Below the pieces are notes generated by a model. The model searched no databases, was not told the origin of the DNA, and saw nothing but the letters and a program-made list of their open reading frames with translations. The position numbers and the translations under genes were made by a program. A stretch of DNA of 64,000 nucleotides from Escherichia coli (lineage in GTDB: Bacteria; Pseudomonadota; Gammaproteobacteria; Enterobacterales; Enterobacteriaceae), in NCBI RefSeq assembly GCF_016903815.1, contig NZ_CP069973.1; one strand, given 5' to 3'. Of the stretch, positions 46,364 to 49,140 are shown piece after piece (the stretch's first letter is position 1; each line of letters starts with the position of its first letter).

Positions 46364-47725
46364 TCAGAAGAACAGTGACGGATCGCCCGCCCATTTGGTC
46401 AGGCGACCGTTTGCCATAATGCCCATGCTTTCCAGCCAGCGTTCAAACTCCGGTGACGGGCGCAGGTTGAGTAACTGACGCACAGTGGCAGTGTCGTGGA
46501 ATGCTGTGGTCTGATAGTTGAGCATGATGTCATCGCCCAGCGGCATCCCCATGATGTAGTTGCAGCCTGCGGTGGCGAGCAGGATCATGAGGTTTTCGTT
46601 GAGGTTCTGGTCAGCGTCAGCGTGGTTGGTGTAGCAGCAGTCACAGCCCATAGAGATGCCGCTCAGCTTACCCATAAAGTGATCTTCTAAGCCCGCACGG
46701 ATAATCTGGCGGTCGTTGTAGAGATACTCCGGCCCAATAAAGCCGACCACGGTGTTGACGATAAACGGATCGTAATGACGCGCCAGCCCGTAGTTACGCG
46801 CTTCCATCGTCACCTGGTCTGCGCCGAAGTTAGCGCCAGCAGACAGCGCCGAACCTTGTCCGGTTTCGAAGTAGAGGCAGTTTTCCCCGGCGATACGATT
46901 GAACTCTGCGCCCACTGCGCGCGCTTCGTCGAGCATCGCCAGCTCCACGCCAAATTCTTTCAGCCCTTTTTCGCTGCCGCAGATACTCTGGAAAATCAGC
47001 CCGCCTGGTGCGCCACGACGGATCGCTTCAATCTGGGTGGTGACGTGCGCCAGCACGCAGCCCTGAGTTGGGATGTTGAATTTGTCGATCACGCCGTAGA
47101 TGGTGTCCAGCACGCGGCTTAAGTTTTCCACGTCGTCCGTCACCGGGTTGACGCCGATCACCGCATCGCCCACCCCGAAGGAAAGCCCTTCGTAGATTTG
47201 CGCAGCGATACTTTGCACGTCGTCACGGGTGTCATTTGGCTGCAAACGGGCGCTGAAGGTGCCCGGAATACCGATGGTGGTATTGGCCTTTTTGATTACC
47301 GGCATTTTCTTCGCGCCGTAGATCAGGTCCGCGTTGGAGCAAATCTTCGCCACCGCCGCGACCACTTCCGAGGTCAACCCTTTGCGGGTAAAGGCAATGT
47401 CGTCCACGCTGGTTTCATCGCTCAGCACATACTCACGCAGTTCGCTGATGCTCCAGTTTTTAATCTGGTTGTAGGCCGTTTCGTTAACATCGTCCTGAAT
47501 CAGCCGCGTCACACAGTCATCTTCATAGGCAATCACCGGATTATTGCGGATGTCCGCTACGGTCATTTCCGACAACACCTGCTTTGCCGCCACGCGCTCC
47601 TGTGAGCTTGCCGCTGCAACGCCCGCCAGCACATCCCCCGAACGCAGTTCGTTGGCTTTAGCCAGCACCTCTTTTACATCCTTAAACTGATATACATTGC
47701 CGAACAATGTGGTCTTTAGTTTCAT
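46364..47725 (-). CDS. eutB: ethanolamine ammonia-lyase large subunit (AdoCbl-dependent)
   Basis: 453-aa ORF MKLKTTLFGNVYQFKDVKEVLAKANELRSGD. Confidence 0.97.
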   Translation of the reverse strand: MKLKTTLFGNVYQFKDVKEVLAKANELRSGDVLAGVAAASSQERVAAKQVLSEMTVADIRNNPVIAYEDDCVTRLIQDDVNETAYNQIKNWSISELREYVLSDETSVDDIAFTRKGLTSEVVAAVAKICSNADLIYGAKKMPVIKKANTTIGIPGTFSARLQPNDTRDDVQSIAAQIYEGLSFGVGDAVIGVNPVTDDVENLSRVLDTIYGVIDKFNIPTQGCVLAHVTTQIEAIRRGAPGGLIFQSICGSEKGLKEFGVELAMLDEARAVGAEFNRIAGENCLYFETGQGSALSAGANFGADQVTMEARNYGLARHYDPFIVNTVVGFIGPEYLYNDRQIIRAGLEDHFMGKLSGISMGCDCCYTNHADADQNLNENLMILLATAGCNYIMGMPLGDDIMLNYQTTAFHDTATVRQLLNLRPSPEFERWLESMGIMANGRLTKWAGDPSLFF

Positions 47726-47736
47726 AAGTCGTTCCC

Positions 47737-49140
47737 TCAGGAAGGAAATGCGAGTGATTTCACCGTCACCGGCACAACCGATCCGCCAAAAAGAGGCGTA
47801 CCAATGTCGATATAGTCCCCCGCGCGGACAATCACTTCGTCAATGACTGCCAACGGGAGTTGTTGTAGCTGTGGGCGCAACAACATGCCCAGAGCTTTAC
47901 CAAAGTCCTGCCCGGCCACCACCAGCAGGGGATGCGGATTCGGAAAACGCGCGACGAAATCGACCAGCGCGTTGATGACCGTCAGTACCGCGGCGTAACG
48001 CACAGGCAGCGAGGCGGGAAGCGCCAGCACGTACGCGTCAGAATTGGGATCAAGATCCAGCTGAATCAGCGCCTGTTGCCAGGCACTCACCAGATCCGTT
48101 TCATCAATTGGGATCGCCACCGGCAAATTGCGCAGCGGCAGTTGTACGCCCTCCAGCCAGATTGTGCTGCCAGAGAGCGAAAGGGTATGTGCACCCGCGC
48201 CAATCACCGTGGCGCGTACGGTTTGCGCCGGAAACTGCACGTTCATCTCACGCAGGCGCGGATGGTCATGCAGCGCCGTTGCCAGAAGCGGGCCAATATC
48301 GGCAAAACAGAACGGGTCGGCGGGCTGGTGGCGATAACATTCGCCCACGCCGCCAGAAAGCGTAATGATTTCGGGCGTAACACCTGCGGGCAGCAAACCG
48401 GTTTGCATCAATGCCTGCGCGAGCGGCGAGAGCGTTCCGTCAATCACTTCGACAATCAGCTCTGCCATCCGCCGGGTAACCTGCACCAGCTGCGCGCCGG
48501 TCAGCGAACGGGCGTCGGTGCCTGCGCCGAAGCACTCATCCACAATCATCTGCCCCGGTTTATGAGCGTAAACCACGCGCCCCTGGCTGTCGGTTTCCAG
48601 CAGGCGACCACCGACGTTGAGGCAGGCAGTGCCGCTGATTTTTCCGGCATCGAACAGGGCGTAGTTCGCGGTGCCACCGCCGATGTCGATATTCAGTACC
48701 CGACACAGCCGTTGTTCAGAAAGGGTTTGCGCCCCGGCACCGTGACCGGCGATCACGGATTCGAGATGCGGCCCGGCGCTGGCGACGACAAAATCGCCCA
48801 GCGACTGGGAGAGCGTCATCACCGCCGGGCGAGCGTTGCGGGTTTTCGCGCTTTCACCGGTGATGATGATGGCACCAGAATCAACGCTTTCCGGCGCAAT
48901 GCCCGCAGCCTGATATTGCTCGAGGATTAAGGTTTTCAGTTCCGCTTCTTTTAAACCACCCTGTTTATCGACAGGGGTAAAGAACACCGGGCTTTGCCAG
49001 CTAATTTCGCGTTTGATGAATTCGTAGCGCGGCACCTGCGACACCGCCGCACGGTTAACCAGCTCCAGGTGGGAGAAGATCACCTGGGTGGTGGTGGTGC
49101 CGATATCGATACCGACGCTCAGTAGCTGGCGAGTGTTCAC
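47737..49140 (-). CDS. eutA: ethanolamine ammonia-lyase reactivase
   Basis: 467-aa ORF MNTRQLLSVGIDIGTTTTQVIFSHLEL; ASKHA-type ATPase fold. Confidence 0.96.
   Translation of the reverse strand: MNTRQLLSVGIDIGTTTTQVIFSHLELVNRAAVSQVPRYEFIKREISWQSPVFFTPVDKQGGLKEAELKTLILEQYQAAGIAPESVDSGAIIITGESAKTRNARPAVMTLSQSLGDFVVASAGPHLESVIAGHGAGAQTLSEQRLCRVLNIDIGGGTANYALFDAGKISGTACLNVGGRLLETDSQGRVVYAHKPGQMIVDECFGAGTDARSLTGAQLVQVTRRMAELIVEVIDGTLSPLAQALMQTGLLPAGVTPEIITLSGGVGECYRHQPADPFCFADIGPLLATALHDHPRLREMNVQFPAQTVRATVIGAGAHTLSLSGSTIWLEGVQLPLRNLPVAIPIDETDLVSAWQQALIQLDLDPNSDAYVLALPASLPVRYAAVLTVINALVDFVARFPNPHPLLVVAGQDFGKALGMLLRPQLQQLPLAVIDEVIVRAGDYIDIGTPLFGGSVVPVTVKSLAFPS

Follow-up and report, generated by a model that had tools for sequence, protein, structure and literature searches.

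The eut operon of Escherichia coli K-12 MG1655 is split by a cryptic prophage, CPZ-55 (6,790 bp, 2558691-2565480), annotated between eutB (b2441) and eutA (b2451), as an earlier note on the present DNA had stated. The question raised by the locus is whether the operon is whole in this strain, and what its wholeness would mean. The window, i.e. the whole stretch analysed, comprises 64,000 nucleotides of an E. coli contig (NZ_CP069973.1, assembly GCF_016903815.1). With little room for doubt, it carries the standard complete E. coli eut microcompartment operon with an empty CPZ-55-type attachment site.

Read directly from the sequence on the minus strand, the stop codon of eutA lies at 47737-47739 and the ATG of eutB at 47723-47725, leaving a gap of 11 nt. 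On the plus strand, the CAT that corresponds to the eutB ATG is followed by AAGTCGTTCCC (47726-47736) and then by TCA, the eutA TGA stop. These positions agree with the earlier note, which had placed only 11 bp between the eutA stop and the eutB start. The contiguity of the two genes is an annotation-type observation with no statistical pattern, so a chance test is inapplicable. The features at the junction are:

46364-47725, minus strand: eutB, ethanolamine ammonia-lyase large subunit, 453 aa, intact (ORF list, MG1655 comparison, NCBIfam NF011649)
47726-47736, minus strand: eutA-eutB spacer, GGGAACGACTT in the sense direction (direct reading and ORF coordinates)
47737-49140, minus strand: eutA, ethanolamine ammonia-lyase reactivase, 467 aa, intact (ORF list, MG1655 comparison, NCBIfam NF007991)
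47737-47744, no strand assigned: unoccupied CPZ-55-type attachment site with a single core TCAGGAAG (eutA stop plus the last 5 coding bases)

The 17 genes eutSPQTDMNEJGHABCLKR are contiguous and run head to tail on the minus strand, from the eutS start at 58014 to the eutR stop at 43176. Besides eutA and eutB, the following genes were recognised, each having the MG1655 length and no internal stop, with the kind of NCBIfam model that identified the product:

57679-58014, minus strand: eutS, Eut-specific model
57187-57666, minus strand: eutP, Eut-specific model
56511-57212, minus strand: eutQ, Eut-specific model
55711-56514, minus strand: eutT, Eut-specific model
54698-55714, minus strand: eutD, phosphotransacetylase subfamily model
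54366-54659, minus strand: eutM, Eut-specific model
53972-54259, minus strand: eutN, Eut-specific model
52557-53960, minus strand: eutE, aldehyde dehydrogenase subfamily model
51710-52546, minus strand: eutJ, Eut-specific model
50533-51720, minus strand: eutG, Eut-specific model
49137-50363, minus strand: eutH, Eut-specific model
45456-46343, minus strand: eutC, equivalog model
44787-45446, minus strand: eutL, equivalog model
44274-44774, minus strand: eutK, equivalog model
43176-44228, minus strand: eutR, equivalog model

All 17 genes are free of indels relative to MG1655, with nucleotide identities of 94.9 to 99.7% and 0 to 8 amino-acid differences from K-12 per Eut protein. EutA is identical at 459 of 467 residues, without gaps, and EutB at 452 of 453. 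The curated NCBIfam cut-off was passed by every product (17/17), through a Eut-specific model for 15 of them and through the subfamily models listed above for EutD and EutE; all Eut proteins are full length and score far above their family cut-offs. EutA reaches 1070.7 bits over its full length (NF007991, cut-off 799), EutB 663.6 bits (NF011649, cut-off 554), EutC 339.6 bits (NF003971, cut-off 230) and EutR, the AraC-type activator encoded by the last gene of the operon, 790 bits over residues 1-350 of 350 (NF007522, cut-off 319). Genes are present for the signature enzyme, ethanolamine ammonia-lyase (EutB and EutC), for its reactivase EutA and for the shell set, which consists of the BMC-domain proteins EutM, EutK, EutS and EutL and the vertex protein EutN (5/5 full-length passes). 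The 17 genes, described before as contiguous and apparently intact, are so on all these counts. The same genes are annotated with no pseudogene flags in the RefSeq record of E. coli strain 7/2 (NZ_CP023820.1; human faeces, Sweden), which differs at one position within the first 39,880 bases of the window, is 100% identical over the junction query and shows no relevant difference from the window.

In MG1655, CPZ-55 is bracketed by the 8-bp direct repeat TCAGGAAG (L001, 8692 and 15482), a duplication flanking the K-12 insert that was already published (PMC6379469). The window contains one copy and lacks the paired cores of left and right attachment sites. Since the crossover core holds the eutA stop codon and the last 5 coding bases, the insertion point of CPZ-55 is the extreme 3' end of eutA and is not strictly intergenic. 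There, at the eutA stop, K-12 carries a 6,790-bp insert whose genes, intZ and yffL-yffS, lie on the opposite strand, whereas the window has no insert: the genes of a CPZ-55-type element, the intZ tyrosine integrase and yffL-yffS, are absent between its eutA and eutB. A BLASTN search of the whole window with the CPZ-55 interior (word size 11, E up to 10) returned chance matches only (E >= 1.3). A longer stretch of attachment-site homology common to the junction and the ends of CPZ-55, considered as a possible homogeniser of the junction between hosts, was rejected, as only the 8-bp core is shared; beyond it, there is a gapped 19/23 similarity in one arm.

K-12 MG1655 and BW25113 have the same 17 genes as the window, in the same order and with the same lengths, and the same flanking genes hemF and maeB. 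Along the eut locus, the window and K-12 are collinear except for CPZ-55 and the eutH-eutG spacer, where the repeat elements of K-12, presumably REP-type, differ from those of the window. Alignment to K-12 over the junction was one of the checks proposed in the earlier note, and neither phage remnants nor frameshifts in eut genes, which it had named as grounds for doubt, were found; its statement that CPZ-55 is missing here holds. The same site is occupied or decayed in other strains. In E. coli PSS-04 there are an intZ element and copies of IS1, and the genes from eutA to eutS are gone. In strain 102651 eutA is truncated by IS903B with foreign DNA adjoining; the window shows no such changes. 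These two strains and the UPEC strain U71 (PMC6652756) share the locus and the junction, which serve as an insertion hot spot.

About 200 nt over the junction are far more conserved at the nucleotide level than their flanks, both within E. coli and across genera:

47625-47823, minus strand: conserved block, made up of the end of eutA (approximately 90 nt), the spacer and the beginning of eutB (approximately 100 nt) (nucleotide conservation, third codon positions included)

Could this block be a cis-acting element in its own right, hitherto undescribed, for instance a regulatory RNA segment or a protein-binding site, that needs eutA-eutB contiguity, rather than the product of ordinary constraint on a translation start? 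Several figures speak for it. Between K-12 and the window, the stretch from -242 to +107 relative to the eutB ATG is free of differences, compared with 72 in 2,777 nt overall, and among the 17 eut gene starts that of eutB is the best conserved. Of 5,423 E. coli records, 5,079 match the block at 99% identity or better, a level reached by equal-length control segments in only 332 of 5,412 (eutA) and 146 of 5,386 (eutB). The block is also 98-99% identical in 30 species of other genera, where gene averages are 78-88%, and is nearly invariant, synonymous sites included, across Citrobacter, Klebsiella, Salmonella and related genera. The loci of this cross-genus sample were located by the EutB N-terminus, so that conservation towards eutB is overestimated, a bias partly offset by four loci found through EutA and by the unbiased control segments within E. 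coli. In the more diverged of those EutA-found loci, however, the excess narrows to about -60 to +30, and smaller peaks occur at the starts of eutC, eutH, eutM and eutE, as generic translation-initiation constraint predicts. Rfam gave nothing at the junction, either at the gathering threshold over the whole window or with E up to 10 over 47400-48050. A stable RNA structure is not supported, with a fold no better than shuffled sequence (z -0.37 sense, -1.5 antisense), and RNAalifold on 12 sequences yielded a covariation term of -0.12 with a single possibly compensatory pair. An overlapping ORF was rejected, given stops in every alternative frame, an antisense ORF of 32 codons covering only part of the block. 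No internal promoter or terminator was found at the junction by consensus scan, the totals being at or below shuffle expectation. We consider a discrete element unlikely. If the element were real, the block might set EutB translation by coupling, or bind RNA or protein, and its conservation would explain the cross-genus choice of attachment site by CPZ-55-type integrases. The unexplained nucleotide conservation of the junction is the only item of this locus that might repay further work.

The geometry of the junction, together with a weak hairpin, suggests that translation of eutB may be coupled to that of eutA. The Shine-Dalgarno-like GAGGG of eutB (47734-47738) is formed by the spacer and the GA of the eutA stop codon. 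This putative ribosome-binding site, overlapping the stop codon, could pair with the last eutA codons in a small sequestering hairpin (UUUCCUU-CCU-GAGGGAA), for which -4.6 kcal/mol is predicted. The hairpin is invariant among the compared sequences, and covariation can therefore lend coupling no support. A literature search found no paper on eutA-eutB translational coupling.

As for expression, since nothing separates eutA from eutB, a transcript from the EutR-, ethanolamine- and B12-dependent promoter upstream of eutS could read through all 17 genes. By taking in eutBC (lyase), eutLK (shell) and the activator gene eutR, such a transcript would close the autoinduction loop, as the Salmonella and E. 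coli literature leads us to infer. The whole operon is thus predicted to be expressible here, unlike in MG1655 and BW25113, and the strain is predicted to draw on ethanolamine, for nitrogen at least, if given cobalamin; the cobalamin uptake genes lie outside the window. A simple sigma-70 scan detected no promoter-like site upstream of eutS. Activator-dependent promoters are often missed by scans for the sigma-70 consensus. BW25113 cannot use ethanolamine while it carries the prophage; once the prophage has been removed without a scar, it grows with ethanolamine as nitrogen source, as does a W3110 stock with an intact eut operon (PMC11334477). With the prophage in place, eutB of BW25113 fails to respond although eutS and eutR are induced, and microcompartments do not form (PMC7617246). 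For comparable E. coli with intact operons, dependence of induction, microcompartment formation and growth on ethanolamine and B12 has been published (PMC11334477, PMC7617246).

An operon that is intact by sequence could still be silent or impaired, through missense changes, a changed promoter or EutR site, or a missing B12 supply, in which case "complete" would overstate its function. The 0 to 8 substitutions per protein and the different repeat element of the eutH-eutG spacer leave some room for this, but substitution at this level is ordinary between-phylogroup variation, every Eut protein keeps its full-length score far above the curated cut-off, and in a published survey 35 of 35 commensal E. 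coli used ethanolamine as nitrogen source (as given in PMC7617246). We judge such silence or impairment very unlikely. No sequence evidence opposes the reading of a complete operon, whose function is a prediction.

The uninterrupted junction is the ordinary state of the species. It was found in 4,964 of 5,426 complete E. coli genomes (91.5%), and a eutB-intZ junction in 405 of them (7.5%). In all 38 loci from other species or metagenomes, eutA adjoins eutB with an 11-nt gap, which was identical in 33 of the 35 loci of the first set, L019 and L032 aligning poorly to eutA. This junction is present in 34 other species-representative genomes, whose genera include Citrobacter, Klebsiella, Salmonella, Yokenella and Pluralibacter, as well as in four additional loci (L039-L042) found via the EutA sequence, independently of the eutB start. 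The description of the locus as ancestral fits this distribution and is supported as a sequence state.

A never-occupied site is indistinguishable from a precisely excised one on sequence alone, because precise excision of CPZ-55 regenerates exactly the same junction. An ancestor of the strain might thus have carried a CPZ-55-type element and lost it later, the junction being secondarily restored. Site-specific excision does regenerate the empty site without a scar; a 6,790-bp deletion from intZ to eutA, exactly the annotated length of CPZ-55, arose in K-12 during evolution in the mouse gut (PMC5850726), and CPZ-55 is missing from the K-12 derivative XL1-Blue (PMC11148124) and from one W3110 stock (PMC11334477). 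The uninterrupted junction was also seen in HST04, a commercial strain. We take HST04 to be K-12-derived. For the present strain, which is approximately 2.6% diverged from K-12, restoration seems very unlikely, and a site never occupied is the more parsimonious reading, since the element is rare (7.5% of genomes) and every sampled locus of the other genera has the empty junction.

The earlier note was right to call this a well-described system: the K-12 interruption, its site, the 8-bp duplication, the prevalence of approximately 8% and the phenotype were all published previously, and it was already known that about nine in ten sequenced E. coli have the uninterrupted operon. The relevance of the locus is one of strain context only, K-12 being an atypical reference for eut. 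Ethanolamine is a nutrient of the gut and the urinary tract and has been tied to competitive fitness.

The eut operon of Salmonella enterica is the reference system for the Eut microcompartment. Salmonella makes B12 itself under anaerobic conditions, whereas E. coli depends on an external supply. S. enterica is known to have the same full order of the 17 genes (Kofoid et al. 1999, cited in PMC7617246). In the Salmonella locus compared here (L039), the order eutG-eutH-eutA-eutB-eutC-eutL and the 11-nt gap are as in the window, and the 60 nt that precede the eutB ATG match it at 100%, with approximately 90% nucleotide identity over the 600 nt compared. EutC has 298 aa in this Salmonella locus and 295 aa in the window.

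On the plus strand, positions 47720-47745 of the window read ...TTTCAT AAGTCGTTCCC TCAGGAAGG... and eut is encoded on the minus strand, where eutA is followed by eutB after a very short spacer. The coordinates and the 11-bp gap proposed in the earlier note are exact, both by direct reading and in the mechanical ORF list, from which the two gene limits below are taken:

46364-47725, minus strand: eutB, 453 aa
47723-47725, minus strand: eutB start codon (CAT on the plus strand)
47726-47736, minus strand: 11-nt spacer between the eutA stop and the eutB start
47734-47738, minus strand: eutB ribosome-binding site GAGGG, overlapping the eutA stop codon, 8 nt before the ATG
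47737-47739, minus strand: eutA stop codon TGA (TCA on the plus strand)
47737-49140, minus strand: eutA, 467 aa

A 7-bp hairpin is predicted here, in which the last eutA codons (UUUCCUU) pair with GAGGGAA (-4.6 kcal/mol). In K-12, where phage sequence precedes the eutB-side copy of the attachment core, a weaker hairpin (-2.2 kcal/mol) is predicted. This arrangement of ribosome-binding site, stop codon and hairpin is typical of translational coupling, and we hypothesize that a ribosome ending eutA would open the eutB ribosome-binding site.

In MG1655 (NC_000913.3), the "cryptic prophage CPZ-55" occupies 2558691-2565480 (6,790 bp) between eutB (b2441) and eutA (b2451); its genes intZ and yffL-yffS are oriented opposite to eut. 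Base-by-base comparison revealed that this insert is flanked at both ends by the 8-bp direct repeat TCAGGAAG, which on the eut strand (CTTCCTGA) comprises the final 5 coding bases of eutA and its stop codon. The window contains a single copy of this core (47737-47744), and from both sides the K-12 sequence runs on into that of the window exactly up to it. K-12 is otherwise collinear with the window, except in the eutH-eutG spacer, and the CPZ-55 interior gave nothing better than E = 1.3 by BLASTN against the whole window. The attachment site of the window is therefore clean and unoccupied. Both the eut system and the polymorphism of K-12 have been published before. One paper reports integration directly after the eutA stop codon with duplication of the same 8 bp, and a frequency of CPZ-55 of 8% among 638 Escherichia/Shigella genomes (PMC6379469). 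Another marks the site as a "prophage insertion hot spot" and shows that the UPEC strain U71 has a different prophage there (PMC6652756).

All 17 eut genes, translated and aligned to MG1655, have the MG1655 lengths and proper start and stop codons, with no internal stops or gaps, 94.9-99.7% nucleotide identity and 0 to 8 amino-acid differences per protein. Their products all score above the NCBIfam curated cut-offs over essentially the whole length, 15 of them with an Eut-specific model; EutD passes the pta equivalog as well as a phosphotransacetylase subfamily model, and for EutE the model is PRK15398, of an aldehyde dehydrogenase subfamily. Frameshifts in the eut genes and att remnants, which the earlier note had named as grounds for rejecting its reading, were looked for and none was found. 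Its claims that the operon is intact and free of CPZ-55 thus stand, the latter on the single core, the negative BLASTN and the 11-nt gap. Strain 7/2 (NZ_CP023820.1; human faeces, Sweden) matches a 1,701-nt window query across the junction at 100%, and differs by one base in the first 39,880 window bases. Its RefSeq gene order is glk ... murQP-pbp4b-IS200C-yfeXYZ-ypeA-amiA-hemF-eutRKLCBAHGJENMDTQPS-maeB-talA-tktB, with no pseudogene flags in the eut cluster.

From 5,426 complete E. coli genomes, 4,964 (91.5%) gave a single alignment across an uninterrupted junction, in two independent queries, and 405 (7.5%) have the K-12-type eutB-intZ junction. By subtraction, about 57 (about 1%) have other states. 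Among these complete genomes the junction of the window is the norm and K-12 the exception. Two genomes with other states were looked at more closely, and both show decayed variants of the hot spot. In PSS-04 an intZ element is accompanied by two IS1 copies, and the genes from eutA to eutS have been lost. In strain 102651 IS903B truncates eutA, next to foreign genes among which are homologues of gadC and murI. In E. coli EA2 (NZ_CP069710.1) the junction block aligns as two pieces over 235 nt instead of 199, and eutB is annotated with 1,398 nt (465 aa instead of 453), pointing to an in-frame duplication of 36 bp close to the 5' end of eutB.

Thirty-five species-representative loci, found with a degenerate DNA pattern that encodes EutB residues 8-20, belong to Citrobacter, Klebsiella, Salmonella arizonae, Yokenella, Pluralibacter, Intestinirhabdus, Pseudocitrobacter and Escherichia species. 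In all 35, eutA is immediately upstream of eutB, and 11 nt separate the two genes in every locus with a clean alignment of the eutA end, the exceptions being two loci with poor eutA alignment (L019 and L032). Four more loci, S. enterica included, were found through EutA at 80-90% identity, a retrieval independent of the eutB start, and also have 11 nt. In a metagenome-assembled contig (L041, Logan SRR22437946; 80% EutA identity) eutA comes directly after eutG, the eutH permease gene being absent from that position, yet the eutA-eutB gap is 11 nt. Judged from this adjacency in all other sampled loci, the uninterrupted arrangement is the ancestral sequence state. The word "ancestral" in the earlier note holds in this sense; DNA does not distinguish a never-occupied lineage from one that lost the element, because CPZ-55 excision is scarless. 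A 6,790-bp intZ-to-eutA deletion arose in K-12 within the mouse gut (PMC5850726). The commercial TAKARA strain HST04 (NZ_CP013952.1), which we take to be K-12-derived, has an uninterrupted junction. CPZ-55 is also reported missing from XL1-Blue (PMC11148124) and a W3110 stock (PMC11334477). Laboratory lineages of K-12 have therefore lost the prophage more than once, the case of HST04 depending on the origin assumed for it.

A block of about 200 nt (roughly 47625-47823, minus strand), covering the eutA 3' end, the spacer and the eutB 5' end, is far more conserved at the nucleotide level than its flanks, also at synonymous sites. In 34 species-representative loci, hardly any position varies from approximately -54 to +90 relative to the eutB ATG, even among third codon positions; in flanking 30-nt bins mostly 0-1 of 10 third positions are invariant. 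Identity to the window over the block reaches 98-99% in 30 loci from outside Escherichia, where the genes average 78-88%, and no other run of this kind in the operon is as long. The eutB start region has a conservation score of 0.984, the other 16 gene starts 0.74-0.93. Since this cross-genus sample is biased by its anchor on the EutB N-terminus, tests free of the anchor were added. In the four EutA-found loci, identity at -60 to -1 is 100%, 88%, 95% and 92%, and further upstream 87%, 74%, 79% and 76%. Of 5,423 E. coli records, 5,079 match the window over the 199-nt block with 99% identity or more; equal-length controls reach this in 332 of 5,412 (eutA) and 146 of 5,386 (eutB). K-12 has no differences from the window between -242 and +107, and 72 over 2,777 positions overall.

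The most economical reading is that the block may reflect an unusually strong translation-initiation and coupling constraint on eutB. We prefer it because the eutB start is AT-rich (GC 0.37 at -10 to +49, 0.73 by +80 to +109) and smaller conservation peaks are found at the eutC, eutH, eutM and eutE starts. If true, such a constraint would make the junction a dependable integrase target across genera. That the block is instead a discrete and undescribed element seems improbable to us: no matching Rfam family, stable fold, covariation support or promoter-like site was found in it. Long att homology with CPZ-55 was not found in the base-by-base K-12 comparison, and no overlapping ORF accounts for the block. 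A 32-codon ORF (MRVISPSPAQPIRQKEAYQCRYSPPRGQSLRQ; plus strand, 47750-47848), antisense to the eutA 3' end and spanning the block only partly, has its ATG directly after AGGAAGGAA, a purine-rich stretch in the att core region, and is probably spurious.

In Salmonella/E. coli, the promoter upstream of eutS is activated by EutR with ethanolamine and adenosyl-B12, and read-through amplifies the expression of eutR itself, since it is the last operon gene (cited in PMC7617246). In BW25113, whose operon holds the prophage, ethanolamine induces eutS and eutR but not eutB, and microcompartments do not form (PMC7617246). Scarless removal of the prophage restored growth on ethanolamine as nitrogen source, as in the intact-operon W3110 stock (PMC11334477). 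With eutA and eutB contiguous, the strain of the window is predicted to express the whole ethanolamine pathway.

Two further features were observed in the window. In the eutH-eutG spacer (at 50396-50531), which is 169 bp long here and 216 bp long in MG1655, the two sequences carry different inserted repeats: in K-12 one repeat, presumably of REP type, is present twice, and the window has a G+C-rich palindromic repeat with arms GGGTGAGGG/CCCTCACCC. Copies of the latter with 80-90% identity number 6 per E. coli genome (median), and only 370 genomes carry it at the eutH-eutG site. An IS200C copy (about 37990-38700; tnpA 38034-38492) lies between pbp4b and yfeX and contains a match to the Rfam STnc490 RNA (38502-38625, minus strand). 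PSS-04 has no IS between these genes, which are separated by about 240 nt.
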